Origin: a virus
Virus record (IMG/VR): IMGVR_UViG_3300017991_000003
Coordinates: 64,001-128,000 of that record
Length of the DNA: 64,000 nt
Direction: 5' to 3' (one strand)
Positions within the stretch are counted from its first letter, which is position 1. Each line of letters opens with the position of its first letter. The notes under the pieces were generated by a model. It was not told the origin of the DNA. It saw only the letters and a program-made list of their open reading frames with translations, and made no database searches. Position numbers and translations under genes: made by a program. Positions 3,307 to 40,500 of the stretch are shown in pieces.

Positions 3307-3595
3307 GCTTCAAGGCGCGGCTGCGCTGGAGGTAGGTGAGCCGGATACTAGAGGCGCGGGCCCTCGAGGATGCCATCTCCGCTTTCCACAACTCGTGGTC
3401 ATGGATGGCTTTGAGGCAGTTCAAACAGGTTGTGCCCTCGATGTCCGGGTGCGCGTCCTGGCTGTAAGCCGGTTTGACAGTGTTGGGTACTTTTCGGCCG
3501 CACCATGTGCGCCAAGTCCCGTCATGTCGGTAGCTACCGCCGACGTAGTGACGCCAGGCGTGGTTAGCGCGTGCCACGAGCCTCGGCGACCTCAT
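3290..3595 (-). CDS. hypothetical protein
   Basis: ORF 3290..3682, start moved to internal Met to reduce overlap with 3564..3797; CLNC motif. Start uncertain. Confidence 0.35.
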   Translation of the reverse strand: MRSPRLVARANHAWRHYVGGSYRHDGTWRTWCGRKVPNTVKPAYSQDAHPDIEGTTCLNCLKAIHDHELWKAEMASSRARASSIRLTYLQRSRALKHAKST

Positions 3596-21980: not shown

Positions 21981-23402
21981 TCAAGGGTTGGGGATGCCTC
22001 GGCGAGCGGCTGTGTACAGCGTGTCGAAGGCCTCGCCCCGGAGCTTGTAGGACGCCATGATGACGTCGCCTTTCCCGGTCGGAGGTGTCTTGTAGGACCT
22101 GAGAGCCTTGACGGCCAGCTCGAGGACCTCGGGCTCGTCGACCCACTCAGGGTAGATGTCCAGGACGCCGTTACGGATCATCGCGTCATGATCCTCGGTC
22201 GAGACAGGAGCGGCGTTGATGTACTCCATGTCGGACATCACGTGGTTGCGCAGCCAGGGGAAGATGTTGTTCCAGGCGGCGGTCCAGTAGGCAGGGATGA
22301 AACCGACGTCTTGGCACCTCTGAGGGCGCATGAAGTCCTTCCAGTCCCGGATCCAGACCTTCAGGAAGACGGCCTGCTGCTGGTTGGTCCTGATCCCCGA
22401 GCTGGCTAGGAGCTCGCGGAACTGGTTCATGATCTGGGTCGTACGGGCGATGGAGTGGGCTAGGCGACCGTTGGGGAGGGTCTCGTTGAACAGGCACTTG
22501 ATCCCTGAGGCCTTACAGGCTGCTCGGATCATGCGGACGAAGTCCATGGACTTCCAGCGATCGACGTGGGAGAGGTCGAGGGGATCGACTCGCTCAGCCG
22601 GCTTGGGGTGGGCTGGGTCCTCCTGAGGGGCCCTGTACTTGGACAGGGTCTGCTTGGACTTCTTCTTGACCCGGTCATCCTGACGGGCCTTCTCCTCGCT
22701 GTAGGCGGACCCACTGGTCACGTCTTGGATGCGCTTCTTCGGGGCCCTATCCCTTCGGGTCATATCCCCCTCCTGAGGGCTTGGCGGGTCCTCCCGCCTC
22801 GACGAGGAATGCGAAGCATTCCGAGGAGAGTCAGAGTCCTTGTAGGACTCTTCCTCGTAAGGGCGGAAGCCGGCTTCACCCTGCTGGCGGCCCCTAGAAG
22901 CGGGGTCACCCCCCGCCGCGGCCACGGTACCGGCCTTGGCCGCCTCCGGGCAGTGCTCCTGTACCCAGGGGTCGTCTCGGTACCTGGCCCACAGTGCTCG
23001 CCAGCACCTGTGGGTGATCGTTCGGGGCCGGAGCTTGACCACTAGGTCCAGCGTGATCGGGACCGGCACGAGCAGGCTCGAGGCCCGGACGCGGTGGGTC
23101 CGATGAAGCAGGCCCACCTCCACAAGCCGGTTCAGGATCGTACGGATCTGCCGGCTCGACAGGTCGCAGACGTCTCCGAGCACACGCGCGGACGCCGAGC
23201 AGATCCCGTTACTGGACGCCTCCGCGAAGGAGACCACCTCCTGATAGACAAAAACCTCGGTCTTGGTGAGGACCGAGGAGCGTCTGACAGCCTTGGACAT
23301 CCGGTCGTAGCCGGAGACCTCCGGGGAGGGGGGCAAAATAATCGCATTTCCCTTAGCAGAAGGGACTTGCGTTCTACCAGTCTCGTGTCCTAGACTACTC
23401 AT
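21981..23402 (-). CDS. winged-helix DNA-binding protein (possible replication initiator or regulator)
   Basis: 473 aa; N-terminal HTH-like segment (SASARVLGDVCDLSSRQIRTILNRLVEVGLL), central low-complexity basic linker. Confidence 0.55.
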   Translation of the reverse strand: MSSLGHETGRTQVPSAKGNAIILPPSPEVSGYDRMSKAVRRSSVLTKTEVFVYQEVVSFAEASSNGICSASARVLGDVCDLSSRQIRTILNRLVEVGLLHRTHRVRASSLLVPVPITLDLVVKLRPRTITHRCWRALWARYRDDPWVQEHCPEAAKAGTVAAAGGDPASRGRQQGEAGFRPYEEESYKDSDSPRNASHSSSRREDPPSPQEGDMTRRDRAPKKRIQDVTSGSAYSEEKARQDDRVKKKSKQTLSKYRAPQEDPAHPKPAERVDPLDLSHVDRWKSMDFVRMIRAACKASGIKCLFNETLPNGRLAHSIARTTQIMNQFRELLASSGIRTNQQQAVFLKVWIRDWKDFMRPQRCQDVGFIPAYWTAAWNNIFPWLRNHVMSDMEYINAAPVSTEDHDAMIRNGVLDIYPEWVDEPEVLELAVKALRSYKTPPTGKGDVIMASYKLRGEAFDTLYTAARRGIPNP

Positions 23403-24900: not shown

Positions 24901-25128
24901 TAAAAAGCTCCTTGGTGAATCAACCGGAGCAGAGCTCCGGAGGTGAAAGGTGCCCCACCCGCCGAGAGGCGAGTGGGGCGGTTGCCAGGATGCACACGAA
25001 CTACTGGAGTGGTGGACCTGAGCTGAGCCGGAGTATGGCACCGGATCGAGCCGGATTCAGTGACTGCGTATAGCTCGTTGGGTTTGTCTACCTCGTGGAT
25101 GAGCTCGGAGTCACGACTCGAGCGGAGT

Positions 25129-25290
25129 CGCCTGCCTCGAGCTCATTGTTGCCATCATCTCGTCTGGTTGATGAGATGGCGGCGGCTCCTCCTCTCCTGT
25201 TATCCTGCGCTTACAGTATTCTCGGTGCCCGAGCTCGACCCATCTCGTCAACCTGACGCGATGATGGCAACAATGAGCTCGAGGCAGGCG
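25129..25290. repeat. 36-bp inverted repeat (35/36 matching) with ~90-bp spacer
   Basis: Left arm 25129-25164 cgcctgcctcgagctcattgttgccatcatctcgtc; right arm 25255-25290 is its reverse complement with one mismatch. Confidence 0.85.
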
Positions 25291-25440
25291 CCGCAGCGAG
25301 AGGCGCCGTGGCTCAGCCTCGTGGTGGGCAAACCCACGAGTTATTCGCAGACACTGAAGCCGGCCCGGTTGACATGCTCTGGCTCAGCTCAGGGTCTACC
25401 CGTAGGTGCAAGTGTGGCCGAGGTTGCTGTTGCGCTATCT

Positions 25441-25455
25441 GCGGCGATGCGCCGC
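25441..25455. repeat. short inverted-repeat motif GCGGCGATGCGCCGC, copy 1 of 3
   Basis: CGGCG-ATG-CGCCG core read directly; recurs at 25787 and 26040. Confidence 0.8.
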
Positions 25456-25786
25456 AGGACCCTCAAGTCAAGAGGGAATAGCTCTTCGTGTGCGGGGATT
25501 CCAAGGCAAGAGCCTGGATGGGCGCGCAGAGCATGATCCCGGTCGTGGAGGCGTGCCCGAGCTTTGTACGCGACCCGGTTCGGGTCGAGGATAAAGCGAA
25601 GGACCAGCACGCTGTAACGATCCGTGGATTATGCTCCGCGCTGTCCCAGCCAGCGCTTCGTTGGTAGTGGGAGGCGCCTCCGCTAGGAGGCGACGTCCTC
25701 GAGTTGCGCTACTGAAGCGACCACACATGCTGGCATGTGTAGCTTCAGGTGCGCAGTGCTCGAGGCCCACGACCAGTCGTACAGTG

Positions 25787-25801
25787 GCGGCGATGCGCCG
25801 C
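25787..25801. repeat. short inverted-repeat motif GCGGCGATGCGCCGC, copy 2 of 3
   Basis: Identical 15-mer to copy 1; flanks extend the inverted repeat to 17 bp. Confidence 0.8.
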
Positions 25802-26039
25802 CTGAAGACGTTGTGGATTAGGCCTCCGGTAGGCCCGTTCCAGTCTTTCTACTCCCTTGGAAAGGTAGTCACCTCTTGCGAGGCTGGCTGGCTACCTTGG
25901 TATCGGCGCTCGTAGAGACTACCCGGTCACACGCCCGCCGGAGGCGGGCTTGTGGACGCGTGGTCTCAACGTAATGTGTCACAGGAGACAGCTCGAGGCG
26001 CAGCTCGAGCGGGCCTCCGGCCACAGTTTCTATCACTTG

Positions 26040-26054
26040 ACGGCGATGCGCCGC
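26040..26054. repeat. short inverted-repeat motif (a)CGGCGATGCGCCGC, copy 3 of 3
   Basis: 13-bp core identical to copies 1 and 2; spacing between copies about 345 and 250 bp. Confidence 0.75.
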
Positions 26055-26265
26055 CGCGGAAGTCAGATGGGCTAGCTAGACCACTTCTTTCCTTGCTCCG
26101 CCGAAGATGTACCTGTTGGCAGCCCTGGTACTGGGCTTTTGGCTATGAAGAACGGATCATCGGGGCCAACTACCCTCCTGCTCTTCGTGCCTGTTGGTAC
26201 CGGCCTTTGGCCGGCAGCCGAGCCTGCTCCGGATTATGTGGAGCAGACTCGGTTCACTTGGTGCG

Positions 26266-26733
26266 CTAGCCGCGCTCCTTGACGGGGACCTTCATGATGA
26301 GGACGTCGCCCTCCTTGAGGGTCATCCCGTCGGTCACCTCCTGGCCGCCGATGTGCGGCTTCGACCCCTCGGGGGTGCCGAAGCGGCGAGCGTACTCGGT
26401 CCGCGCGTCGGCGACCGAGGTGCCGGCGGCGACGTTGAGGCGGCCGGGCTCGCCCAGACCGTCGGTGGCCGCGGCGGTGACCGTGGCGACCGGACCCGCC
26501 TGCGGGGTCTCCTGGGTCGTCGGCGCCGTCGTGGCGGTGGGAGCGGTGCGCGTCACGGCGACGGCCACCTCGGTGTCCGTGGGCAGACCCGTGGTCTGGT
26601 CCCACTTGGTCGGATCCGAGTGGTCGACCTCGTAGAGCACGGGGTTGCCGGCCGCGTCGTTCGCGGGGGAGTCGGCGTAGCGGATGCGACGGTTGAGGGT
26701 GTCGAACGCGGGGCGCTTGATGTTTCCGGTCAT
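26266..26733 (-). CDS. small protein with candidate ThiS/MoaD-like beta-grasp (ubiquitin-like) C-terminal domain
   Basis: 155 aa; C-terminal ...IGGQEVTDGMTLKEGDVLIMKVPVKERG resembles ThiS/MoaD but ends RG, not GG; last gene of the RT-JAB-E1 operon. Confidence 0.4.
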   Translation of the reverse strand: MTGNIKRPAFDTLNRRIRYADSPANDAAGNPVLYEVDHSDPTKWDQTTGLPTDTEVAVAVTRTAPTATTAPTTQETPQAGPVATVTAAATDGLGEPGRLNVAAGTSVADARTEYARRFGTPEGSKPHIGGQEVTDGMTLKEGDVLIMKVPVKERG

Positions 26734-26756
26734 GGTGCAGAGGGTGTGTAGAGGGT

Positions 26757-27491
26757 TCAGGTGAGTTGGAGGGAGTGCTGCGTCTGCGGCGCGGCTTTCC
26801 CACCGAGCACGTCGACCACGATGGTGTTGAAGCTGGGCTTCATCGGGTCGTCGATCGTCAGGACCTGGGCGAACCAGGTCTGCAACATGGCCTGGGCGAC
26901 CGCTTGGTTCGCCAGAGCCAGTTGCGGCTGCGTCTCGTACTCCTGGGTGCAGTCCAGCTGATCGGGAAACTCGTTCCCAGGAGTCTCATGACGCATCTCG
27001 GGGTTCCGTTCGGTGAGCGACGCGCAGACGTCCTCGCTGTTGATGCGGCGCCAGAGCATGGCCTGGCCGCTGTCGAGGTCGTTGCCGCCGTCCACCCACG
27101 TGAACTCGTCGAGCTTGTCGAGCTGCTCCTCGAGGAAGCAGCGGGTCTTGTTGTTGTCCACGCAGCCGAACAGCGTGACGCCCTCGACCAACCACTCACG
27201 GTGGTGGTTCAGGAGCCGATCGCTCAGGTACATGGAGATCACCCGGACGTCCAGGCCCGGGAAGGTGTCTCGCAGGGTTCGGGCCATGATCTCGGCTTTG
27301 TTCTGGCCGATGGCCGCGGCGCCGTGCTGGCGCGCGAGGTTGTGGTCCTCGACCTCGTCGCCGTCGATGATGAAGAGGGTCGGATTCTGGATCCGATCCC
27401 CCACCATCTCAGGCGGGTGGGCGAGAAGACGAGCGAGCGGCTCGGCTAGGTGGTAGCCGATGCCGCCCGCTCCGAGGATGGCGTAGATCAT
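26757..27491 (-). CDS. E1-like enzyme (ThiF/MoeB/ubiquitin-activating family)
   Basis: Track ORF trimmed to ATG 27491 (MIYAILGAGGIGYHLAEP...); GxGxxG loop and E1 signature FIIDGDEVEDHNLARQ; collinear with ThiF/MoeB; starts 5 nt after the JAB gene stop. Confidence 0.8.
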   Translation of the reverse strand: MIYAILGAGGIGYHLAEPLARLLAHPPEMVGDRIQNPTLFIIDGDEVEDHNLARQHGAAAIGQNKAEIMARTLRDTFPGLDVRVISMYLSDRLLNHHREWLVEGVTLFGCVDNNKTRCFLEEQLDKLDEFTWVDGGNDLDSGQAMLWRRINSEDVCASLTERNPEMRHETPGNEFPDQLDCTQEYETQPQLALANQAVAQAMLQTWFAQVLTIDDPMKPSFNTIVVDVLGGKAAPQTQHSLQLT

Positions 27492-27495
27492 GAGG

Positions 27496-29394
27496 TCAGG
27501 GGTAGATGGGGAGGGTGGCTTCTGTTTCGGACTTGTTGCAGAAGGCGATCTCCTCGAGGAGGACATCGTCTTCCATGTCGTCGGGGTCCTCGAGGACTCC
27601 GTCCATCTCGAGCACCAGTCGATCCATCTGATCGAGGATCTCTTGGTAGTCCTTGCGGTAGGGAATGCCGGCGTTCTGGGCCGCCTTGCGGACGACAAAG
27701 TAGGTCAGCCGGAACCACTCGAGCAGGACGCCGTCGGAGTCCTCTCGCGAGAATGCCTCGACGTAGCTCAGGTTGGTCTCGATCACGGTCTCGATCACGG
27801 TGTCGATCGACGTCTCGGGGAACACAGTTTTCACCGTCGGGTCGGCGTAGACGTATTTCGAGAGCTTGTCGATCCGGGCATCCAGTGCGATCGACTTGAA
27901 TAGCCGGTCGAGAAGGTCGTCGATGCGATTCATCACCTCGTCGATGACGTCTCGAACCAGCATGCTGTAGAGGGTCTGACGACTCTCGGATGCGCTGTTC
28001 TGCGCTTCTTCGACGATCTCTTCGATCGTGGGGGCGTTATCGAACCACTCACTGGTCGAGGCGTGGTTCATGAGCAGATGCAGGGCTAGGGCCGTAGCGT
28101 TGCTCGACGTCAGACTGTCCTTGAACGAGGTGCAGTACGCCCACACGGCTCGTGGGAAGGTCGTTTGCTGACCCTCCGCCTTCTTGATCAGCTGAAGGGG
28201 GTAGTGCGCTTGCGGTGAGATCACCATGCCGTAGAAGCCGGTGTGCATCCGCTGGATGCGGAACTTCTTATCAGCGACCAGCGAAGGGCCAGAGGCTGTC
28301 TTGCTGACAGGTACCAGTGAGGTAGTCGTCTTCTTCGTCGTCTGGCCAAGGCCACCCTGCGCCCCCGTACCCCCAGTCTTGCCGCCAGGAGTCGAAGGCG
28401 TACCCGCTTTGCCGCCGGTCCACTTTTTCGAGCCATAGCCGCCATACCTGCTGGTCTTGGCTTTCTTCTCCGCCTCCTTGATGGCCTCGCTGGCCAACTT
28501 GAACGTGGTAAGACAACGGGCGGCCTCGCCCATCCTGTCCTTCCAACGCCCCAGGCTTTCCATCGACCCACAGAAGGTCATCACAGTGCTCGTGTCGACG
28601 TCCTCGAGCTTGTCGACGCTGAGACCGACGGCGAGCTCGTCGGGATCGACCCCGGCCTTCAGCATGGCTTCGCACAGTCCGGGGTGGGCGACCCGGTTCA
28701 GCCACAGCTGAATCAGATCCAGGCCGCCCTCCACGAAAGGGATGTCGAACAACTCCTCGAGACCGGTCGCGTGGCGGATGCCCTGCGCCTTCTCGTTGCG
28801 GTAGCCGGGGAGGGCGGTGACGAACGACGGGCACACCGAGAAGGGCGGCTTGTCCACGTTCCCGAAGGTGATGTGGAAGCCCGTCTGGTTGAGCTCGTTG
28901 GCGTCGTCGGTCGAGCTGTGGTAGGCTCCACCAGCGCCGTGACTGTGCGCGGTGCCGACGCAGATGAACTCGACAAGCTCTCCATCCTCGCAGATGGGGC
29001 AAGCGTTGCCGGCTTCGAGCTCGATCGAGCCGATGCGACAGGTCGTGCAGAAGCTCTTGACGTTGGGATCGTACTTCACGTGCCCCGCGGAGGCGGTGTA
29101 CCACGGCGGACTGACGAGGGTGTAGGCGTCGTCGACCGGCCCTCGGTGGAAGAGCACGAAGGCCTCGGTCTTCCACAGGCGGTAGACCTCGGCGAAGTAG
29201 CGGTAGACGAACATCGTCTCCGCCATGGAGATCTTGGGCCAGTTGGTGAGGTCCAGGTCACGCTGGATCTGGTCGGTTTCACCGAGGTCCTCGGCCCGGG
29301 CGGGAACGAAGGCCTGAGCCCAGGCGGCCCCGCCTGGGCCGATGGTCTTCAGCACGTGGGCTTGGTTGCCCTTGTAGTAGATGTCGGTGGTCAT
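27496..29394 (-). CDS. JAB/JAMM (MPN+) metalloprotease-domain protein with N-terminal zinc ribbon and long C-terminal extension
   Basis: Exact JAMM motif HSHGAGGAYHSSTD (HxHx7Sx2D) after CTTC...CPIC; Gly/Lys-rich linker; ATG 29394 overlaps upstream stop (ATGA). Confidence 0.7.
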   Translation of the reverse strand: MTTDIYYKGNQAHVLKTIGPGGAAWAQAFVPARAEDLGETDQIQRDLDLTNWPKISMAETMFVYRYFAEVYRLWKTEAFVLFHRGPVDDAYTLVSPPWYTASAGHVKYDPNVKSFCTTCRIGSIELEAGNACPICEDGELVEFICVGTAHSHGAGGAYHSSTDDANELNQTGFHITFGNVDKPPFSVCPSFVTALPGYRNEKAQGIRHATGLEELFDIPFVEGGLDLIQLWLNRVAHPGLCEAMLKAGVDPDELAVGLSVDKLEDVDTSTVMTFCGSMESLGRWKDRMGEAARCLTTFKLASEAIKEAEKKAKTSRYGGYGSKKWTGGKAGTPSTPGGKTGGTGAQGGLGQTTKKTTTSLVPVSKTASGPSLVADKKFRIQRMHTGFYGMVISPQAHYPLQLIKKAEGQQTTFPRAVWAYCTSFKDSLTSSNATALALHLLMNHASTSEWFDNAPTIEEIVEEAQNSASESRQTLYSMLVRDVIDEVMNRIDDLLDRLFKSIALDARIDKLSKYVYADPTVKTVFPETSIDTVIETVIETNLSYVEAFSREDSDGVLLEWFRLTYFVVRKAAQNAGIPYRKDYQEILDQMDRLVLEMDGVLEDPDDMEDDVLLEEIAFCNKSETEATLPIYP

Positions 29395-29816
29395 GTGGTG
29401 ATCAGGGGTGGGTGGAATCGACGTAGGACGGTCAAGACCGCCTGGGTGTCTTCGTTGATGTCTTGCTCGGCTAGTAGGTGATCGAGCCGGCGCATCCAAT
29501 CACGTAGGGTCGTGAGCTGCTCGGGGCCCATGCTCGCCGGAGGGTCGACGACAGGACGTCGGTCGCTCTCGTCTCGGATCAAGTTGAAGCGGATGTTGTT
29601 GATCCTTCCACCGTCTAGCGCAACTGGATAGGTGCGTTGGAAGATCTGACCAAGAGCCTCGATCATCTCTCGAGTAAGACCCGTCCCCTCAAGATCGAGA
29701 AGGTGCGGTCGGTTCTCGAGGATCCGAGATAGAAGCTCCTCGCGTCTCCGGATAATGGCCTGGTGATCATTGTGTCGATCACGCGCGCCTTGCACGGTGT
29801 CCAGAATGGTGGTCAT
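29391..29816 (-). CDS. hypothetical protein (operon member, no Cys)
   Basis: ATG 29816 (MTTILDTVQ...) overlaps stop of upstream gene (ATGA); 141 aa. Confidence 0.5.
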   Translation of the reverse strand: MTTILDTVQGARDRHNDHQAIIRRREELLSRILENRPHLLDLEGTGLTREMIEALGQIFQRTYPVALDGGRINNIRFNLIRDESDRRPVVDPPASMGPEQLTTLRDWMRRLDHLLAEQDINEDTQAVLTVLRRFHPPLITT

Positions 29817-30655
29817 CGGACCACCTCTCGCCACTTCTCGGCCGCCGTACCGAGCTCCCGGCCCAGTACGATCTCATCGACGTCCGTCTGCCAGGTCATG
29901 ATGCGATCCTCGGTCCAGCGCTGCCATCGACAGAACTGCCAGAGCATGACAGTGTTCATGTTCAGGCCCAGATCACGCCGCCTGTCGTAGTCGGTGTAGT
30001 CACCTTCGGGGAGTTGCTCGAAGTACGGGACCTCTCGAAGCGCTTCGGGAACCTCAAACCCCTCAGGGAGCGGCCCGCTGAAAGGTGGCATGGTCAGGGA
30101 GTGCTCGTAGTGCGCGTTGTAGCCGGACTCGTTGATGAGCTTGAGGACCATCTCCGGGATCGACTGGAGCCCGTTGTACCGGTACTGGCGGAACACAGCA
30201 CCCGTGCACATGCCTCCCGTATCTTGCTGGTTCGGTAGGAATGATTTGTACAGAACCGGGGTGTACCCCGCCTCCAGATGCGGCTGCTGCTTGGTGAAGA
30301 AGCAGCGGGCATCGGAGAGGCGCCCGTCGTAGATCGAGATGATGAAGACGCGCGCAGGCATGGCGACCAGGAATCGAAGACCCTCCGGCCAGCCGCGGTT
30401 CTCGCGGACGTCGATGGAGATCCTCTCAGCCCGCGGAGGCACGACTGCCATGAAGTGCTCGTTGTGGGCATCCTTGGTGTGTGCCAGGATGTTTACGTAG
30501 GGGTGGTACGGAAAGAGGGCGCCAGCGCGCCGGCCTCGTTCCTCGAGGGCGGTCACGACGTCTTCTTCCCGCGTGATGCGGTTGACGTGAACCGTTTGAT
30601 GGATCACGTGACCATCGACGATGACGAGTCGATCGTGGGTTTCGAAGTTGGTCAT
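29813..30655 (-). CDS. hypothetical protein translationally coupled to the reverse transcriptase (candidate accessory/effector)
   Basis: 280 aa; ATG at 30655 overlaps RT stop at 30652 (ATGA); no recognised motif. Confidence 0.55.
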   Translation of the reverse strand: MTNFETHDRLVIVDGHVIHQTVHVNRITREEDVVTALEERGRRAGALFPYHPYVNILAHTKDAHNEHFMAVVPPRAERISIDVRENRGWPEGLRFLVAMPARVFIISIYDGRLSDARCFFTKQQPHLEAGYTPVLYKSFLPNQQDTGGMCTGAVFRQYRYNGLQSIPEMVLKLINESGYNAHYEHSLTMPPFSGPLPEGFEVPEALREVPYFEQLPEGDYTDYDRRRDLGLNMNTVMLWQFCRWQRWTEDRIMTWQTDVDEIVLGRELGTAAEKWREVVR

Positions 30656-31755
30656 GGGAGGTACGCGCGTGTCTCGGCGCTGTAGTTGGTGGGGGTGTTG
30701 TGGTGCACGTCTTGCGCGACACGCAGTTGTAGTTGGAGCGAGGCTCCTTGATCAGGGTTGATGAAGTTGACGTGGTTGACGAGGCCGGCGAGGTGGTCAA
30801 AGTTCACCGGCACAGGGCCTCGGTGCGTCAGCTCTCCCCCACGGGGACAGCGGCCGAAGTGCGCGTCGCAGATGATCTTGTGCAGCCGGGCGCGAAGCGC
30901 GCGCCGTCGAGGCCTGGGAGCGCTTAGCTTCTCGTTGACGACGACGCCGCAGACCGTCATGCGACTGCCGATGGAGCGGAATCGGATCTTTTCGGGGGCG
31001 ACCTTGTAGCCCAGCTTTTTCAGGAACCCGATGACGGGGTACTGGAACTGGTACAGCTTTCTGTAATCCGCCGTGAAGGTCATGTCGTCGCTATAGCGGG
31101 TGTACGCGATCGGCAGGAGTCTGATCTGAGTCTGCGTCTTTCGCCGGCGCTCTCCGTGGTTGTCGACCCACCGCATCGTGGGGTTGGTCCGCCAGGACTC
31201 GATCAGCTTCAGGATGCCGAAGTCCACCTGAGCCCCTGCCAGGTTGGAGAGGAAGGGGGACGTGGGGGCTCCTTGTGGTAGGCCACCATCCAAGAAGCAG
31301 GCGCGTTTGACTCTGTCAAGGAAGAGCCTGTCGGCACGTGACATCGGTTGCATGTACCCCCTGGTCAGGAAGTACTCCAGCTGCTCGAGGACGACGTGGG
31401 GAGACACGGACGGGAAGAAGTCCCGCAGATCGATGTCCAGCTTGTACCGGTGACCTACATGCGGGGCGGCGTTGGTGTGGATACCACGCTTGCGGACGTA
31501 GGCATGAGCTGCTGGGGAGGCCCCGATCCCGAGCGCTTTGAGCTCGCTGAGGATGAGCTTTTGAGCAGCCATTAGCTCCGGGCAAGGGATCTGGAGCTTT
31601 CGCATCTTCTGACGTGTCCGACCGTTCGAAAGCGTCTCGAGTACCGGGACTTCTCGACCATCCCGGGTACGCCTGGTCTTGGGGATTCGTGCGAATCGGT
31701 AGTGCTCAGCTTGAGCGGTGTCCGTCAGGACATTGAATGATGGGTAGCCAGCCAT
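30652..31755 (-). CDS. reverse transcriptase, retron-type
   Basis: 367 aa; RT motifs: HTNAAPHVGHRYKLDIDLRDFFPSV (NAxxH + motif 2), LPQGAPTSPFLSNL (QGxxxSP), YTRYSDDMTF (YxDD), TVCGVVVN (VTG-like); GAGGGT SD before ATG 31755. Confidence 0.85.
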   Translation of the reverse strand: MAGYPSFNVLTDTAQAEHYRFARIPKTRRTRDGREVPVLETLSNGRTRQKMRKLQIPCPELMAAQKLILSELKALGIGASPAAHAYVRKRGIHTNAAPHVGHRYKLDIDLRDFFPSVSPHVVLEQLEYFLTRGYMQPMSRADRLFLDRVKRACFLDGGLPQGAPTSPFLSNLAGAQVDFGILKLIESWRTNPTMRWVDNHGERRRKTQTQIRLLPIAYTRYSDDMTFTADYRKLYQFQYPVIGFLKKLGYKVAPEKIRFRSIGSRMTVCGVVVNEKLSAPRPRRRALRARLHKIICDAHFGRCPRGGELTHRGPVPVNFDHLAGLVNHVNFINPDQGASLQLQLRVAQDVHHNTPTNYSAETRAYLP

Positions 31756-32549: not shown

Positions 32550-33218
32550 ATGTCGCAACGACCCACAGGTTCTCGCCCCGCCCCGCGCGGCTCGATGATG
32601 TCCGCTGACGCCGCTGCCGCCGACGTGCGGGCTCGGCAAGAAGCCGCAGCCCAGGAGCAGCTACAGCAGCAGGCCCAGGCGGCCAATGAGGCTCCCTCTG
32701 AGGAGCAGACCGAGCTCGACGAGGCCATCAGCTCCCAGATCCCCAAGGAGGTTCAAACCTCCCGCGGGATGCGCCCCTACGCCCAGTTCAAGAAGGAGTT
32801 CGACGAGGTCTATGAGCAGGTCCGTGACAAGGACCACCTGCTCTCTGGTCGAGTGACATACTCGACCGAGCTGGCTGGTCTTCCTATCACCATCCAGAGC
32901 CTGCGCCAACGGGACCGGCGGCTGCTGGCGGCCTGGGCCCCTGACGCCCGGGATGAGCATCGGGCATTCATGGATGGGGAGTTCCAGTACCGCTCCCGCC
33001 TGATGGTCCTGTCCCTGGTCCGGGTTGGGGATGTGGAGTTCCCGAGCCTGCCGATCAAGACGGATCCGGAATCTTGGGAGAAGCAGGACCCGATCCAGCA
33101 GGCCCTGTCCTACGTTGAAGACTGGGACGAGACCCTGTTCAACGTGATCTTCGGGCTCCTATCTGACCTCGAGACCGCCAAGCACTTCGCGCTGCTGGAG
33201 AACCTGGGAAACCCCTAG
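32550..33218 (+). CDS. hypothetical protein
   Basis: 222 aa; GGAGAC SD before ATG; Gln/Ala-rich N-terminus. Confidence 0.55.
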   Translation: MSQRPTGSRPAPRGSMMSADAAAADVRARQEAAAQEQLQQQAQAANEAPSEEQTELDEAISSQIPKEVQTSRGMRPYAQFKKEFDEVYEQVRDKDHLLSGRVTYSTELAGLPITIQSLRQRDRRLLAAWAPDARDEHRAFMDGEFQYRSRLMVLSLVRVGDVEFPSLPIKTDPESWEKQDPIQQALSYVEDWDETLFNVIFGLLSDLETAKHFALLENLGNP

Positions 33219-33265
33219 CCACCCCGCTCGCGTACTACCGAGTCCGCCTGCTGCTGCGGGGCGGG

Positions 33266-33559
33266 GTGGATCTAGCGGAGTTCTCCTTCCTCGAGCAGCA
33301 AGACTTCATCGAGTACGAGCGGAAGGAGCAGGCGATGCGGTTCGTCGAGCAGGCGACCCAGATCTACGCCACCGCCAAGGATACGGAAAGTGCTAAGGCC
33401 CTCGTTGAGCGGCTCCGGGAGGAGCTCTTCATCGGCCAGGCCCAGGCCAAAGCTGAGCGCACCAAGCGTCTGAGTGACGAGCTGGTCGAGGCGATCCACA
33501 AGACCTATTCGATCACTACGGCCGGCGGAGCCGCTATCCTTGAGGTGAGCAATGACTGA
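33266..33559 (+). CDS. hypothetical protein
   Basis: 97-aa helical acidic ORF. Confidence 0.45.
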   Translation: MDLAEFSFLEQQDFIEYERKEQAMRFVEQATQIYATAKDTESAKALVERLREELFIGQAQAKAERTKRLSDELVEAIHKTYSITTAGGAAILEVSND

Positions 33560-34112
33560 ATCTTTCACCTCCCAGGTCCTCCGGCAGACCATCAAGCAGG
33601 TGCGGGCCGGGTCTCGAGACCTGACCAGCACCCGGCTTGAGCCTTACTACCGAGGGACGCGGCGCCTCTCGGCGGAGGAGGTGGCCAGCCGAGCCGCGGC
33701 CTCGGCCGCTTTTCGGCAGGAGGCTGGATTCCGACCTCTCTCCACGGCTGAGGCGGCCCAGCAGATCGGGGACAGCGGGGGCCGGGCCCTGTTCCTGACC
33801 CTCATGAGCGGGCTGGGACTGGAGCGTGAGTACGACGAGGACGTCGTCTCTCAGGATGCTGTGGAGGGGGTCCCGGATCTCGGGGACCGGACGACCTTTG
33901 CGGACACCAAAGCCGCCTCAGGCGCCTCGCTGACGGTCCAGGAGGCCCGTGCCGGCCTGCGGGCGGTCGAGGGCCTAGCCAGCCGCCTCCCCACGGGCGG
34001 GCAGGTCAAGCACATCCTTGAGCCCGCGCAGCCGGCCCTGGCGGATGATGATTCCGTGGTCCAGGAGCGGCTCGAGAAGATGTGGGACTACGTCCGCGAC
34101 CTGTTGCCGTAG
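33552..34112 (+). CDS. hypothetical protein
   Basis: 186 aa; overlaps upstream by 8 nt. Confidence 0.5.
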   Translation: MTESFTSQVLRQTIKQVRAGSRDLTSTRLEPYYRGTRRLSAEEVASRAAASAAFRQEAGFRPLSTAEAAQQIGDSGGRALFLTLMSGLGLEREYDEDVVSQDAVEGVPDLGDRTTFADTKAASGASLTVQEARAGLRAVEGLASRLPTGGQVKHILEPAQPALADDDSVVQERLEKMWDYVRDLLP

Positions 34113-34192
34113 GTCCGGTCGGAGCGGGGGTTTATACTCCTAGCAGGCGTAGGAGCCGCTTCTCTGGCACTGGGTGCCAGTGCCAGTAAACC

Positions 34193-36247
34193 ATGCCCGA
34201 CCCCTATCCGAACCAGAACCAGGCGCTGTACGCCCTCCAGCAGCGGATCCAGGCCCAGCAGCAGCAGCAAATGCGGGCTGAGTCCATGGCCGTGGGGGGC
34301 ACGAACTCCATGGCCACTGAGTCCATGCGGGTCTCGATGATGCTGCAACAGCAGCAGCTTCAGCTCCAGATGCAGCAGCAGATGCAGCAGCTGCGCTCGT
34401 CCATGTACGGGACGTTCACGGCTGGGGCGGGCGCCGCATCCCCGGTCATGCGCCAGAACTTCGGCTCTCTGGTGATGGGGGCTGGGGTGGCTCGGGGCGT
34501 CAACACGATGACCGGCGGGCTCCTATACCCGGACTACAACTACCATTGGGGCCTCACCCGGGCTCGGATGGAGCAGGACGCGTCGGACGAGCTCCGTCAG
34601 CGGATGTTCAGCGATGTCGGGAACGAGTTGATCGCTGGCCTGGTCCCGGACGTGATCCGACGCCGGACCGGGGCGGCCTTCGCAGGCTCGAGGCCTGAGT
34701 TTGTGCGGGCAGCTTATGCTCGCTACTCCGGTTTGCGGGGCGGGGACGTGGCCGCGTTCGGCGGTGGAGGTAACGTTGACGGACCTGGTCTGCGATTGCG
34801 GGCTGACGCGACACAGAGCTCAGCGCGGGCGTTCGAGGCCGGGCTTTTGAACCTCAACCGCCGGCTTGGGTATGCCCTCGGTAGCGATGAGGTGAGCATG
34901 CTCCAGGACGTCACGGCAGGCCTCTCGGTCCACCAGGCCTTCCGAGGTCAGCGCGCTGGGGAGTCGGTCCTTGCCTCGGATAACCGCCAGGTTCAGAGCC
35001 TGATTAGCAGCATTCATGACCTGAGTCGTGCTCTCCAGCTGAACGTTGATCAAACGCGCGAGATGGTGAACATGGGCCGGCAGCACGGCTTGATGCCTAA
35101 CAGCTCGGCGTTCCAGGCTCTGGGAGCCATCGGCCAGGGCGGAAACCTGATCCAGATGAGCAACGCGGATCGGGCCCGGTACGCTATGCCGATCATGGCT
35201 CAGGCCCGCGGGATGGGCATGGACGCGGTCACCGCAGTCAACCGGCGGTTCGGTAGTGCGGAGGGCGTCCTAGGCCGCTACCGGGCTGGCCTCATGTCTG
35301 ATGCGCAGCTGTTCCGATTCGGCGGGACCAGTGAGGACGACGCCGCGATGCGCGTCGCGGAGTATCAAGAGCGGCTCGGTCTGGGATACGCCTCGCGGTT
35401 CGGAGGCAGTCTTGGGGCACTCTCCTATGCGGGGCAGTCTGTCGGAGGTGCTATCAGCACCGGGGCCCGGTTGGGTGCGGTTCTTGGATCCAACCCTCTG
35501 GCAGGTTTGCGTGCTTCTATGAGTGGGGCGGTGCGCTCGAACATGGCAGGCTCGATGCAGATGGATGCTTACGCCTATGCGCAGGATGCCTACCGCATCG
35601 GCGAATCGATTCAACCGGGCGGCGGTGAGGTACTTGCCGCTCGAGTATTCGGCCAGATGATCGGTGAGTCTGACCCGGTTCAGGCTATGAACATGTATCG
35701 GCAAATTGCCGGTGAGGTCGGCGCTGTCCAGCGTGGTACGTCGCTCAGTGGGGCAGAGTCTCTGCGGTTTGTCCGTACCCGTCGAATGATGCAGCAGGTG
35801 ACCGGCGAAGCCCCGGATATGTTGGATACAGCTAGGCTGTATCAATCTTTGGCGGGACGGGATGTGACCGCGGTGAGTGTTGCCCGGGCGCTAGCCCTCT
35901 CGGGAGCAGGCAGCAACACGCAGACGTCGCGCGAGTCTATCAACAGTGGCTATCGACAGGCGTCCGTGGATAAGTTCCGAAAGCTGATTACGGGACAGAC
36001 GGATCCGTCGCTCCTAGCCGTGATTGCCGAGATCTCCAACCTAGATGGGACGGGACTATCGGTGGATGTTCTTCAGGACATGGCCATCAACAAGAACAGC
36101 TCTGGGTGGAACACCGACGCTGTCAGTGTTCGGGAGCTCCTGACGATGGATCAGTTCCTCGGTAACTTTGGGAAGATCAACAAGAACCCAGACAAGCCCC
36201 CGAGCGGGACTGAGAACAATCCGATCTACGTGAAGACGGTGAGCTGA
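34193..36247 (+). CDS. large hypothetical protein (possible virion or internal protein)
   Basis: 684 aa; Gln-rich N-terminus (QQQQLQLQMQQQMQQ), Gly/Ala/Ser-rich body; ATG 34193. Confidence 0.6.
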   Translation: MPDPYPNQNQALYALQQRIQAQQQQQMRAESMAVGGTNSMATESMRVSMMLQQQQLQLQMQQQMQQLRSSMYGTFTAGAGAASPVMRQNFGSLVMGAGVARGVNTMTGGLLYPDYNYHWGLTRARMEQDASDELRQRMFSDVGNELIAGLVPDVIRRRTGAAFAGSRPEFVRAAYARYSGLRGGDVAAFGGGGNVDGPGLRLRADATQSSARAFEAGLLNLNRRLGYALGSDEVSMLQDVTAGLSVHQAFRGQRAGESVLASDNRQVQSLISSIHDLSRALQLNVDQTREMVNMGRQHGLMPNSSAFQALGAIGQGGNLIQMSNADRARYAMPIMAQARGMGMDAVTAVNRRFGSAEGVLGRYRAGLMSDAQLFRFGGTSEDDAAMRVAEYQERLGLGYASRFGGSLGALSYAGQSVGGAISTGARLGAVLGSNPLAGLRASMSGAVRSNMAGSMQMDAYAYAQDAYRIGESIQPGGGEVLAARVFGQMIGESDPVQAMNMYRQIAGEVGAVQRGTSLSGAESLRFVRTRRMMQQVTGEAPDMLDTARLYQSLAGRDVTAVSVARALALSGAGSNTQTSRESINSGYRQASVDKFRKLITGQTDPSLLAVIAEISNLDGTGLSVDVLQDMAINKNSSGWNTDAVSVRELLTMDQFLGNFGKINKNPDKPPSGTENNPIYVKTVS

Positions 36248-36948
36248 TGGGGAGCATCGACGACGTCCTGTCTGGCACCGGCCCCGACGATACGGATCTG
36301 ACCCAGGGTCCGCAGGTGTCGAGCTCGGATGATTACGAGATCGTGCTTGGGTACGATCCTGCGGATTATCGCCACCTGGGTGCGGCGATGGGGGCGGAGT
36401 ACGACAAGGTCCCTGCCACGCTGGTAGTTCGCGACATCGGAGACGCGGCCACGGCGCAGGAAGGGATCATCGATGCAGCCAGCACAGCGTTGGCTCAAGT
36501 ACTGCCCTTCCCGCTCGGTCTGGTAGCTAATGCTGGGCTCGAGATCGCGCTCTCGCCGATCGTATTCATCACAGACAAGCTGATCCTTACCAGCGCGGTC
36601 GAGCCTCGCAGCGCCCGATCGGCTATGGTGATGAGCTTCAATCAGCCGACGGTCTACACGTCGGGCATGCAGCCCTACATTTTCCGGTACGCGGGTCACG
36701 TGTTGATCAACGAGCTGGATGGGGACGGGCGCAACCAGTTCTACGCTGCCTACCGGGAGTACCTGCGCGCCTCAGCTAGCCTGGTCGGGGCGGAGCGGCA
36801 GACCATGCCGTGGGTCGTAGAGCTCACCTTCCGAGATATGTTCCGCGCCGGGTATGTGGTCGACCTGTCGATGTCGATCAACGCAGCAGAGCCTAGCAAG
36901 GCTGACATCTCGTTCACCCTCTTCGTGATCGATGACCGGTTCTCCTGA
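36247..36948 (+). CDS. hypothetical protein
   Basis: 233 aa; TGATG coupling to upstream gene. Confidence 0.55.
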   Translation: MGSIDDVLSGTGPDDTDLTQGPQVSSSDDYEIVLGYDPADYRHLGAAMGAEYDKVPATLVVRDIGDAATAQEGIIDAASTALAQVLPFPLGLVANAGLEIALSPIVFITDKLILTSAVEPRSARSAMVMSFNQPTVYTSGMQPYIFRYAGHVLINELDGDGRNQFYAAYREYLRASASLVGAERQTMPWVVELTFRDMFRAGYVVDLSMSINAAEPSKADISFTLFVIDDRFS

Positions 36949-37502
36949 TGGCCTTTGAACCTCGAGACACCGAGCTGCGGGAGCGCTTCGGCGAACAGGC
37001 CCAGGAGCTCTACGAGGGCGACCGGGCGGCTGTCCGTGTCTTCCCCCTGGATGCGACAGGGGCTCTGGTTTTGACCAATCCGGTGGCCGAGTTCGATCAG
37101 CTCTTGATCGGACGAGTCGAGGAGCCGGATCGGGAGCGGGTGCAGTACAGCCAGTCGTTTGACGGCAACAAGCTCTACGCCTACGGCAACGATCACCGGG
37201 TCTATGCGATCTCCGCGGCCTTGCTCGATACGGACCTGGGGACGACGATTCAACCCCCATCAGGCAGCGAGGCGAGCGCGTGGGAAGGGCGCGGGCATCG
37301 TGACTGGGTGCAGTTCTTCGAGCAGTACGCTAGTCTGTGGGCATGCGCTCGGGATCGTCTGCTGGTCCAGCTGACCTACGGTCGGCGCCAAGTCTACGGG
37401 GCCTTCCTTGAGTCGACGCCCAACCTCGTGGCCTCAGCGCCGCACCGGCTGGATCTCCTGCTCTCCTTTTACGTGACCCACAGTCAGCCCATCGAGTTCT
37501 GA
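36948..37502 (+). CDS. hypothetical protein
   Basis: 184 aa; TGATG coupling. Confidence 0.55.
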   Translation: MAFEPRDTELRERFGEQAQELYEGDRAAVRVFPLDATGALVLTNPVAEFDQLLIGRVEEPDRERVQYSQSFDGNKLYAYGNDHRVYAISAALLDTDLGTTIQPPSGSEASAWEGRGHRDWVQFFEQYASLWACARDRLLVQLTYGRRQVYGAFLESTPNLVASAPHRLDLLLSFYVTHSQPIEF

Positions 37503-40500
37503 TGACTGCCGAGACCCGAGCCGGCCTCCTAGCATCCCAGTGGAAGATCTTTCTGGATGGCGTGGAGGTTCCGCACCATGGGTTCAGCATGGTCATGTCT
37601 CAGGATCAGGTCAGCGAGGTGATGCTGAGCCTGGAGCCGGACAAGATCCTGCTCGAGCTTCGGCCGCAGACGATGGTGCACATCTTCGCCAAAGATCGAT
37701 TCCCTGACCCGGCTCCTGGGCAGGAGGATGAGGAAGGTGGTGTGCAGTTTGCCAAGACCTATACCTCGGACGAGGACGAGCTCAAGGACACGTGGCACCT
37801 GTTCTGGGAGGGCGTGGCCGCTGGGCGCACCCACCAGAAATCCAAGGGCAATAGGTCCATCCAGGTTCGAGCACGAGCCTTGGTAGAGAGCCTAGAGCGC
37901 ACCCCGGCCTTCATGATGGGTATGGGAGGGATCGAGTACAGCTCTATTGCTTCCGGCAGCCGACTGCCTGCGACTGTGGCGGGTGTGATCGAGGGCGGCG
38001 GGCCTTCGTCGGTAGACACGCTCAGCCTGTTCACGCTGGCGGATCTCTTCACTAACGACGGGGAGACCGGTTCCGATGTTCCTGGCCGTGATAGCGCTAC
38101 TCCGCGGTTCGCTGAGCGCTTGATCCGCTTGATCACCTACCTCAGTAGTTACAACGGGGTGCTACGTCAGCACGTGGTCCGTGGCCGGCTCCTGAACAAG
38201 ATCGCGTCTATCCCGGATAGCATCCTCGAAGGGATCCTCGAACGATCTGTGGGCCTGAGCCTGCTGGGCGACATGCAGAACCGAATCACGTCGCGCAGCT
38301 CGGTGCTCGACATCATTCGGCAGGTGATGTCCTATGGGTTCTATCACCTGGTCCAGGTCCCTATGCCTTACCGGCCGAGTAAGCAGCCGGAGATGGGATC
38401 GATGATCCCTACTCTGACCGGGAAGCAGGATGAGGAGCAGGCTACCGCCCACCAGATTCCCTACGAGTACTACCGGAACGACTACGTGTTCGTGCCGGAG
38501 ACGTACTACGCGCTGCCGCCTCCGTGCAACTTCGTGTTCCCGGATGAGATGGCAGACCTGTCCATCGGGCGGGAGTTCCAGTCGGAGCCGACGCGGCACC
38601 TGGTACAGGACCCGCACCTAGCCTCCTTCGTTGGTAACTTCTTCTACTGGCTGGCTCCTGAGGACATCATCCGCAAGGCGCGGGAGGGTGCTGGTGATGA
38701 CGTGACCTCGGCGAACCTCTTCGCCATGGCGTCCACGTTTGGCCGCTCGATCAACGTGAGCGGGGCCACGTCACCGTACGCATACCCGGACTCCGCCGAC
38801 TTGGAGAGCGGGTCGGTGCGTAGCCTCCTTGGCGCTGTATCGGACCTAGAGCTGGAGAAGGGTATTGTCCCGAGCTTCGGGCAGAACCGGTTCGAAGCCT
38901 TGGCAGCCGCGGCGTACCTGAGCCGCACAATCCCACGCACGGAGGACCAGGCCACGGCCCAGTCGATCGAAGACTTTGCTAACCCGGAAAATGCTGCGTA
39001 CGCCGACCTGATGGCGGCGGTGGCTAACTACCAGCTTCAGCTGATGCGCTACCGGCGCCAGGGCCAGGTCTCGATGCTTGGGCACCGGTGGATCATCCCC
39101 GGGCTTCCAACCATCATCTTCGACTCGGACATCTCGTACTTTGGTCAGGTCGTGTCGACCACCTTCGTGGTCAACTCTGATGGCCAGGAGTCGACGACTC
39201 TTCAGCTGGATCGTACTCGGCCTGTTCCGAAGATGGAGATCGAGGAGATCCGAGCCGCGCTCGAGGGCCTCTCCACGAAGCTCCAAGAGCTGCAAACCCA
39301 GAAGAGCAAGGTTGCGGACCAGGCGCTGGGGCAGACGATCTCCTCGGCGCTCTCAGGCCCCCTCGCGTCTCAGACTACGCAGTACGGCGGGCTGGGCGCC
39401 AAGATCGAGCAGACTCAGTCCGCGCTCCAGAACTGGAACACGTACATCGGTGGAGATACCGTCGACCTGGTTACGACGACGGGCGCTCCGATCCAGGAGA
39501 CTCTGACGATTGAGGGCACGCAGTTCGATGGGACCGGCTTGACGACCTACTTCCAGGACCTATCGACGGAGGCTGCGGAGATTCAAGCAGGCCTGGATGA
39601 GCTTCTGGTCGATGGGGCGGCTGTCGCAAAGGCTCTCAATACTGGGGAGATCGCTGTTGGCGGATCTGCTTTCTCCACGACCCTGACCAAAGGTGACCAG
39701 ACCATCTACGCGGCGGGCAATGTCAGTCCAGCGTACTTGGCATACCTGTTCCTCGACGTCCCGGTCCTGGTTGATACGACTGGGCAGATCACAGCAGCCA
39801 AGGCGGCGTTGGGTGACGGCTTCTCGGTGTCGGGACTCAAGAGCGCGCTAGGCTCCATTGTCAACGGCGGCGCCTCCAGCGACGTGTTTACAGGTGGCGA
39901 GGCCCCGAACACCGTGGCCGGTGCCCTCGCGGTCCTGACCGTGGCGGCGACGTACTACGAGCTGGCCACGGCGGCGATTGTCGAGTGGCTTACGATTCAG
40001 AAGGACATCGCAGATTCTGGCGAGAACTTGGACTTCCTCGATCTCCCGCCCTCGACCCAGGCTGCGGCTGATCAATCCTACAAAGACCAGTACCAGACGA
40101 TCGTCGACACACTGACGAATGAGATCATCGAGGACGGCCAGAAGGTCCTTGAGGACTTCGATACCCGCTTGGACTGGCCGGCGCCCCCGGCCTTCTTCTC
40201 TGAGGACTTGATTGCCACGGAGAAGTTGGATGACCTGTACCAGACCTCTTTCGGATGTAAGCCGTTCTACACCGGCCCGTACACGGCGACAGCAACGAAC
40301 GAGACTGTAGCGGCCATCCGAGCATCCTTGACTGAGTTGGATCTTGGGGAGCTTGAGACTGAGTCGGGCCTGAGTATGCAGGATCGACTGGAGTACTACC
40401 TCGAGTATCTGTCCGGGGTCTCGGCGTTGAACAACGTCTACCCCATCCTGGAAGGGCAGGAGGAGCTGACGGACGACGTGGCCCCGCCGCCTAGCTGGCA

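Follow-up and report, generated by a model that had tools for sequence, protein, structure and literature searches.

Retrons and bacterial ubiquitin-like (Ubl) conjugation systems are much-studied conflict systems, treated so far as unrelated host weapons. In the stretch of viral DNA analysed here (64,000 nt, positions 64,001 to 128,000 of IMG/VR record IMGVR_UViG_3300017991_000003; the whole stretch is called the window below) both are found in one phage-side operon, conserved over deep divergence: on the minus strand at 26266-31755, a gene for a retron-type reverse transcriptase (RT) heads a series of genes for a predicted E2-like protein, a small protein, a JAB peptidase, an E1-like enzyme and a Ubl protein. 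The locus raises the question of whether the RT and the conjugation genes act as one system or are independent neighbours. The cassette is predicted to comprise an RT plus a full E1-E2-JAB-Ubl set, and the arrangement is no chance adjacency, since it is the same in every relative open to examination; the link of the RT to E2-JAB-E1 is recurrent, not obligatory. What is new is a phage-borne retron-type RT together with a Ubl-conjugation module, with a candidate RNA downstream, each module being of known kind. An earlier note on this DNA, made from the sequence alone, had put forward an RT hard-wired to an E1-JAB-Ubl set as a pairing not known to it. Full-text searches returned no paper describing an RT or retron operon with ThiF, JAB, E1-like or ubiquitin-like genes, a 2006 survey covering E1/E2/JAB operons of prokaryotes places none in an RT context, and the words 'ubiquitin' and 'ThiF' are absent from the text of a 2026 retron survey.

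Gene order and predicted proteins

Six open reading frames (ORFs), read from the sequence of the minus strand, make up the operon (Table 1). The stop codon of the RT gene overlaps the start of the 280-aa (E2-like) gene in an ATGA (30655-30652), and the same type of overlap joins the 280-aa and 141-aa genes (29816-29813) and the 141-aa and JAB genes (29394-29391). The JAB stop (27498-27496) is separated by 4 nt from the E1 ATG (27491), and the E1 stop (26759-26757) by 23 nt from the Ubl ATG (26733). Given the three ATGA overlaps here and overlaps in relatives, the genes are translationally coupled. All six ORFs thus lie in the single co-oriented, overlapping phage operon that the earlier note had described, with the ATGA overlaps and the 23-nt gap as it gave them and the JAB-E1 gap corrected from 5 to 4 nt.

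Table 1 Features of the operon and adjacent DNA in the window (protein lengths counted from the correct ATG starts; operon genes in order of transcription).
Feature	Length	Position	Strand	Basis
Retron-type RT, first enzyme gene of operon	367 aa	30652..31755	-	RVT_1 4.4e-14; retron RT models
E2-like protein (UBC superfamily, Prok-E2_D type)	280 aa	29813..30655	-	Transitive Prok-E2_D link and motif
Small protein, poorly conserved	141 aa	29391..29816	-	No family match
JAB/JAMM metallopeptidase	632 aa	27496..29394	-	Exact JAMM motif, Prok-JAB
E1-like adenylating enzyme	244 aa	26757..27491	-	ThiF 9.2e-14, motifs
Ubiquitin-like protein	155 aa	26266..26733	-	C-terminal beta-grasp model, terminal Gly
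ORF upstream of RT	200 aa	31812..32414	-	56 nt upstream of RT; no family match
Gene-free candidate non-coding RNA stretch		25850..26265	Operon strand (-)	Hairpin chain, minimum free energy -185 kcal/mol, z -4.9
Giant imperfect hairpin	~190-bp stem	25017..25393		Nested inverted repeats; between operon and replication genes

The RT matches Pfam RVT_1, and retron models give its best scores in both collections searched: 2.4e-44 for the best PADLOC retron RT model and, in NCBIfam, 1.8e-38 for retron_St85_RT against 2e-10 for group II intron RT and 1e-4 for Drt2. YSDD, LPQGAPTSP, NAAPH and VCG (VTG-like) motifs are present and conserved across seven relatives, and a C-terminal extension of ~80 aa is also conserved. 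Placement in the retron clade is based on these profile scores and on the YxDD, NAxxH and VTG-type motifs, with no outgroup phylogeny; the same scores and the LPQGAPTSP motif type led to rejection of the diversity-generating and group II-type readings. The retron_St85_RT score is under its curated cut-off (132 vs 235 bits), as are the scores for every typed retron family among the NCBIfam profiles, and a search of cultured phages with the RT gave distant matches only.

The E1-like protein matches Pfam ThiF and contains GAGGIG, DGDEVEDHNLARQ, DGDxVExxNLxRQ and CVDN motifs as well as Cys181 within FPDxxxC. The GxGxxG, Arg-finger and CVDN motifs and Cys181 are invariant in 11 sequences, combining nucleotide-binding motifs with a catalytic-type cysteine; from its position, Cys181 is the putative thioester cysteine. 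The best NCBIfam match is PRTRC_ThiF (TIGR03736, 5.8e-15, below cut-off), and comparison of the E1 profile with the PDB retrieved the adenylation domains of TcdA, SAE2, UBA1, MccB, Uba4, UBA5, MoeB, Cap2 and BubCD.

In the JAB protein the motif HSHGAGGAYHSSTDD is an exact HxHx7Sx2D, invariant in relatives together with an upstream Glu. The N-terminal ~230 aa correspond to the JAB domain (Glu77, His150, His152, Ser160, Asp163) with an inserted Cys4 zinc ribbon (C116, C119, C132, C135), followed over ~400 aa by a low-complexity Ser/Thr/Gly-rich linker and a variable helical region without a match. Prok-JAB is matched by the window protein slightly under the 25-bit cut-off (2.9e-5, 24.3 bits) and by 10/10 aligned relatives; among NCBIfam models, PRTRC_A (TIGR03735) is matched at 5e-4, and at 2.5e-5 by the JAB protein of the related locus L009 (relatives are designated by L numbers). 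A PDB profile search with the JAB protein gave noise only, and tblastn found no match for it in cultured phages.

In the Ubl protein a low-complexity linker joins a conserved N-terminal domain of ~50 aa to a C-terminal beta-grasp domain of ~70 aa that ends K-E-R-G-stop. A K-x-R-G ending is found in 13/13 homologs, with the Gly invariant; five of the 13 have one or two residues beyond this Gly, and a processing peptidase is therefore called for. An AlphaFold2 model of the C-terminal domain (pLDDT, the predicted local distance difference test, 74; pTM, the predicted template modelling score, 0.62) has the beta-grasp order of elements, with best structural matches to MoaD, TtuB and MoaD2/ThiS. 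The N-terminal domain (window 26584-26733; NIxRPxFxPxxGxRIKYxDSP...WDQxTGLP) occurs in the window, L002 and L004-L007, is absent from the 75-78-aa Ubls of L008, L009, L012, L013 and L104, and has no family match.

The 280-aa protein has no direct Pfam match. A profile search of 1.84 billion representatives identified 50 homologs, 18 of which match Pfam Prok-E2_D (best 7.1e-9), and alignment of the homologs revealed an invariant Pro, Asn and Cys (Pro100, Asn142 and Cys150 in motif LPNQxxxGxxCxGxxF). Because of these Prok-E2_D matches and the invariant P/N/C motif, the protein is read as the predicted E2 of the set, with a catalytic Cys assigned transitively. In hhalign LPNQ..G..C was aligned on the HPN..G.IC of human E2s with low probability (23%), PDB profile searches gave nothing relevant, and AlphaFold2 (11-sequence alignment) returned an unusable model (pLDDT 38) that leaves the fold unsupported. 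The 141-aa protein, which has no match in Pfam, PADLOC or NCBIfam scans, is matched in position, between E2 and JAB, by a product of 119-162 aa in every relative (mean column identity 29%), and its family hidden Markov model (HMM) matches a 120-aa gene of the RT-less L014 cassette (5e-15). Across 10-50 homologs, strong constraint acts on the predicted catalytic residues of all four enzymes (RT, E1, E2, JAB) and on the Gly that ends Ubl. The earlier note's retron-type RT, E1-like ThiF/MoeB enzyme and small protein with a ThiS/MoaD-like tail are all recovered here; its JAB protein with exact HxHx7Sx2D also stands, although JAB domain and zinc ribbon occupy only ~230 of 632 aa, and the hidden E2 for which it had suggested searching is the 280-aa 'unknown'.

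Cassettes with and without the RT

RT-bearing relatives were gathered via JAB homologs, via E2 homologs traced to their contigs and by a scan of JGI metagenomes. The order RT-E2-small gene-JAB-E1-Ubl was found at the same genome position in L002, L004, L005, L007, L008, L009, L012, L013, L097, L099, L102 and L104, with partial cassettes in L011 and L101; every sufficiently long locus of this main lineage has the full order. The cassette is carried by 13 distinct metagenomic phage lineages with identities down to 30-35% (RT, E1) and 13% (E2), and in nearly all main-lineage loci the RT and E2 genes overlap. The matrix of pairwise RT identities correlates with that of E1 (r=0.88; 0/2000 permutations as high), so the RT has not been independently exchanged within the lineage, and between L008 and L009 RT and E1 are the best conserved cassette genes. 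A DNA search of cultured phages gave no match to the locus. A JAB-protein scan of IMG/VR had a sole match, IMGVR_UViG_3300018080_003942 (91.6 kb), taken as the window's own contig, and an identical JAB protein is present on a 193-kb contig.

Scans with the E1 alignment gave 80 loci in IMG/VR and 35 in 100,044 species genomes, the latter all on contigs of metagenome-assembled genomes (MAGs) and none in isolate genomes; these scans rest on two short peptide patterns each, and the loci were annotated with family HMMs, such that absence of an RT refers to the 6-10 kb fetched per side. Almost all of these loci encode an E2-like domain, JAB and E1, often with a Ubl-like gene, and no RT (~99/114 non-redundant E1s). 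In a rough tree of the 114 E1 sequences (quick neighbour-joining), the 13 RT lineages form one clade, while RT-bearing L108 and L124 lie elsewhere among RT-less cassettes. The RT is directly upstream of E2 in all 15 RT loci, 265-297 nt away in L108 and L124. RT association at three places in the tree suggests that it arose more than once, and the RT is an add-on to an older phage/mobile-element cassette, acquired repeatedly or else lost on many occasions, given that the core is mostly RT-less and that two RT loci lie elsewhere in the tree. The hard-wiring proposed in the earlier note therefore stands for the 13 lineages, with their co-divergence, and not for the core, which is commoner without the RT; the finding it had named as refuting its proposal, synteny showing RT and E1/JAB genes to be separable modules, is half the case, since the E2-JAB-E1 core is mostly RT-less, including in a cultured Bacillus phage.

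In L124, direct repeats of ~80 nt (2237-2316 and 3398-3477; 78-84% identical) are found directly upstream of the RT core and of the E2 start, and look like an insertion scar of the RT or a duplicated leader/RNA element.

The RT-less cassettes (IMG/VR L016-L094, MAG L106-L138) are on phage contigs of up to 527 kb. They resemble the window cassette in gene order, with homologs of the E2-like, JAB and E1 genes and, in many cases, a Ubl-like gene after them, but differ in lacking the RT, in their shorter JAB proteins and in an E2-like domain (motif LPNI..(V/I)C(L/M)G) that often forms the N-terminal part of a protein of 850-1200 aa. Neighbours of the L029 cassette include genes for an SbcC-like protein, a Rho_N/SAP-domain protein, a second ThiF and multisubunit RNA polymerase beta/beta'. 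Bacillus jumbo phage vB_BauM_KLEB27-3 (217 kb, cultured; L010, OM634661.1 161902-174426) has the RT-less core as gp196-gp195-gp194, in which gp196 is E2-like by tblastn, gp195 is annotated with a PRTRC_A domain and gp194 is a ThiF protein; E1 is also present in Bacillus phages Edson and vB_BceM_WH1. The MAG contigs (L106-L140) were binned to bacteria of the candidate phyla radiation, DPANN archaea, Planctomycetota and others, and are probably phage contigs mis-binned into MAGs; MAG contig L110 and IMG/VR viral contig L032 are both 81,767 bp long, with near-zero E1-tree distance.

Among known systems PRTRC (ParB-related, ThiF-related cassette) provides the best family matches of both E1 and JAB, with the models named above, and the E2-like family links to Pfam Prok-E2_D, a member of which adjoins a PRTRC ThiF gene in Bacteroides thetaiotaomicron (PMC10434189); both cassettes are on mobile elements. 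The window proteins are nevertheless relatives and not members of the PRTRC families, with 55.3 bits vs a cut-off of 144.75 for E1 and 19.6 vs 101.8 for JAB, and PRTRC is carried by plasmids and integrative and conjugative elements (ICEs) whereas the carrier here is a phage and the cassette includes an RT. ParB-like and PRTRC B-F proteins were found neither among the six proteins (NCBIfam) nor among ~30 neighbouring ORFs (Pfam, PHROGs). No function of PRTRC is described in the literature searched.

RNA elements, proposed function and alternatives

The operon resembles retrons in that its RT falls in the retron branch by profiles and motifs, accessory genes follow in one operon and, in some relatives, structured RNA elements are closed by terminal inverted repeats. 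It differs in the position of these elements, the msr-msd of retrons being normally upstream of the RT and the candidate RNAs here following either the RT or the entire operon; in an accessory module of five genes, of a kind without counterpart among retron effectors in the literature searched; in a carrier that is a virulent-looking phage; and in an RT that scores under all typed-family cut-offs. Upstream of the window RT there is no room for a retron RNA, since the 200-aa ORF ends 56 nt before it, and no Rfam match was found in the window.

Every relative has a gene-free stretch of ~0.5-1.4 kb downstream of Ubl. In L008, L009 and L100 this contains an element of ~240 nt with 12 helices and a terminal stem of 12 bp that closes it; most of the coding sequence there is less conserved. 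It has 14 compensatory pairs, compared with 0-2 in slid controls, and 0/500 shuffles reach that number. The element is predicted to be an RNA of the operon strand, as single-side changes still pair via G.U on that strand. It matches no Rfam family, and a covariance model derived from it (R1) gave no match in the window or the other sublineages. Between the RT and E2 genes of L108, an interval with no plausible ORF, there is a 239-nt element with a 15-nt inverted-repeat closure and five internal hairpins (z -3.9); the region after Ubl in L002 also folds strongly (z -6.3), with an inverted repeat from the Ubl stop codon that competes with a nearer local hairpin, and L104/L105 have conserved hairpins at the corresponding position.

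In the window itself, the ~419 nt after the Ubl stop form the hairpin chain listed in Table 1, with a folding energy reached by 0/100 shuffles, and are possibly a non-coding RNA serving as template or partner of the RT. The stretch matches neither Rfam nor R1, and homology or covariation is undetectable because the nearest relative, L002, is too distant; the best closing stem of a1/a2 type is 12 bp with G.U pairs, of which ~0.5 would be expected by chance (rough estimate).

A reading of the ~1 kb gap as a single conserved retron RNA was rejected, as the conserved blocks of L004-L006 are tRNA-Ala and tRNA-Gly genes. The tRNA-Ala(TGC)/tRNA-Gly(TCC) genes lie on the operon strand after Ubl (L004 13534-13687, L005 13415-13490, L006 4625-4700, L007 13006-13079); no tRNA genes were found in the window.

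With about as much probability for as against, the operon encodes a complete Ubl conjugation pathway of the phage, headed by the retron-type RT as first enzyme gene. If the proteins follow the chemistry established for their families, E1 would adenylate the C-terminal Gly of Ubl and then hold Ubl as a thioester, Cys150 of E2 would accept Ubl from E1 and attach it to a target, and JAB would trim the one or two post-Gly residues present in some homologs, reverse conjugation, or both. By analogy with retrons, the RT would work with a structured RNA encoded 3' of the RT or of the operon, and the RT-RNA/DNA complex might gate the conjugation machine or be its substrate or targeting device. Because of the fixed core position of the cassette, its presence in all lineage members and its absence from isolate genomes, the role would be in the phage's own infection programme, modifying proteins of the host or of competitors, or else the phage's replication or virion proteins, and not in host defence. 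An RT/RNA-gated or RT-targeted conjugation system in phage-host conflict is thus the favoured interpretation, resting on these analogies; a more specific form, in which the RT copies the RNA downstream of it (in the main lineage, at the operon 3' end) and the RT-DNA/RNA licenses E1-E2 or is itself Ubl-tagged, is put forward only tentatively and as clearly the less probable; it would amount to a nucleic-acid-programmed protein (or nucleic-acid) tagging system of phages.

Several points weigh against this interpretation. The E1, JAB and RT scores are all under the curated cut-offs of named families, and the E2 assignment is transitive, the window protein having no direct Pfam match and its AlphaFold2 model having failed. 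The RT is unneeded for conjugation as such, as the RT-less core in ~99/114 loci indicates, and synteny within one phage lineage can be explained by shared ancestry alone. The msr-msd RNA that defines retrons is undemonstrated in the window, where the best closing stem is at chance level, and covariation rests on three related sequences of another sublineage.

The strongest rival is that the RT and the Ubl cassette are independent neighbours sharing a transcription unit, the RT being used, for example, for cDNA counter-defence or replication priming; we regard this as unlikely, though still the most plausible of the alternatives. It would accommodate the absence of an RT from the E2-JAB-E1(-Ubl) core in most phage loci and in KLEB27-3, and the resemblance of the ~80-nt repeats flanking the L124 RT to an insertion scar. 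Gene overlap is common in phages, and all genes of a phage lineage co-diverge, so r=0.88 does not prove coupling. However, in the 15 RT loci, which come from three places in the E1 tree, the RT adjoins E2 and occupies no other site, its overlap with E2 is near-universal in the main lineage, and the RT is missing from no lineage member that retains the other genes.

A role in virion assembly, with Ubl and JAB as a chaperone or processing step for structural proteins of the divergent operon, is appreciably less probable. Ubl and JAB proteins have an established precedent in tail assembly of phages lambda and T1, where protein I is a Ubl and protein K combines JAB with NlpC/P60 (PMC1779556), and the likeness extends to a phage Ubl with C-terminal Gly and a JAB peptidase beside structural-like genes; the cassette is, moreover, always head-to-head with the conserved module at 32550-40981. 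But the lambda/T1 systems have no E1, E2 or RT and the JAB protein here has no NlpC/P60 domain, the neighbouring proteins lack detectable structural-protein homology, and the neighbours of RT-less cassettes are genes for replication and transcription (SbcC-like, multisubunit RNA polymerase).

It is more improbable again that the operon is a host-type anti-phage retron with a Ubl effector, acting by abortive infection from a prophage or defence island. The RT is retron-type, retron effectors vary, and E1/E2/JAB/Ubl sets act in type II CBASS (cyclic-oligonucleotide-based anti-phage signalling system) and Bil defence (PMC10557695, PMC10097602). The Bil (BilABCD) and type II CBASS Cap2/Cap3 systems are, however, host defences with larger or fused E1/E2 proteins and no RT, and JAB and E2 of the window gave no significant sequence match to solved Bil or Cap proteins in PDB profile searches. 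The cassette was found in no isolate genome among the 100,044 species, only on phage-looking MAG contigs; the window has its own replication genes and no integrase among its scanned ORFs; and a fixed core position in every lineage member is unlike that of accessory defence genes.

Least probable is a sulfur-carrier pathway, in which E1 would activate a ThiS/MoaD-type thiocarboxylate carrier and JAB expose its Gly for cofactor, thionucleoside or tRNA modification: the structural matches of the Ubl domain, the minimal 244-aa E1 of ThiF/MoeB size and the tRNA genes after the operon in L004-L007 would suit it, but an E2-like protein whose cysteine is invariant belongs to every cassette, the operon and the scanned neighbouring ORFs showed no partner (sulfurtransferase or synthase) of the rhodanese, ThiG/ThiH, MoaE or TtuA type, Ubl ends in a single Gly after Arg and not in Gly-Gly, and the closest E1 and JAB families are PRTRC and not biosynthetic ones.

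If RT and conjugation genes act together, as in the favoured interpretation, retron-type RTs would have an effector logic of a new kind and Ubl conjugation would be controlled or targeted in a new way, which would also give a first functional handle on the widespread E2-JAB-E1 (PRTRC-like) cassettes of phages, plasmids and ICEs. Cultured KLEB27-3 makes the RT-less core experimentally accessible.

Surroundings of the operon

The carrier is a large phage with few recognisable genes, and the carrier phages are apparently virulent. Window genes include those for a family A DNA polymerase (PolA), Toprim primase, DnaB-like helicase, DHH phosphoesterase, ThyX, sigma factor and exonuclease; the replication genes are ~1.3 kb from the operon, with an O-like initiator at 21981-23402. 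The only recognisable virion protein among those scanned is a 1258-aa protein (9633-13409) with matches to tail-fibre/head-decoration-like repeats (PHROGs 8.6e-23). On its other side the operon is head-to-head with the module 32550-40981, syntenic in all relatives, which includes a 684-aa Gln/Gly/Met-rich protein and an 1159-aa protein and possibly encodes structural proteins. The transcription unit may begin with the 200-aa ORF that precedes the RT; by alignment this ORF is conserved in L002 only, with unrelated ORFs of 42-101 aa in its place elsewhere.

Between operon and replication genes, the giant hairpin folds as RNA with a minimum free energy of -243 kcal/mol (z -16) and better on the opposite strand (-274 kcal/mol). 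Similar giant hairpins of unrelated sequence are found in the same place in L006 (4825-5118), L007 (13433-13926) and L104 (8722-8944). Mismatches on the operon strand are mostly A.C (20 A.C vs 3 G.T over three phages), and the hairpin may act as an origin or priming signal, give rise to an antisense RNA, or simply reflect mutational skew. The strand asymmetry was not accepted as proof of antisense RNA or cDNA, since G/T skew of the plus strand could yield the same pattern. An 18-nt self-complementary motif, GGCGGCGATGCGCCGCC (plus strand), is present three times in the gene-free gap (25439-25456, 25785-25802 and 26038-26055; spacing 346 and 253 nt), and the copies may be protein-binding sites or small hairpins.

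Contigs L004, L005, L096, L100 and L105 end 320-920 nt after Ubl, and four of the five are 20-166 kb long. L105, the one case open to checking, stops ~25 nt short of where its relative L104 has the long hairpin, which suggests assembly breaks; breakage at a long inverted repeat fits these ends better than genome termini or over-coverage by msDNA, both of which were rejected. Across nearly the whole window (1-64000), GC skew is positive (G>C, plus strand) and AT skew mostly negative regardless of gene orientation, consistent with one direction of replication through the region.

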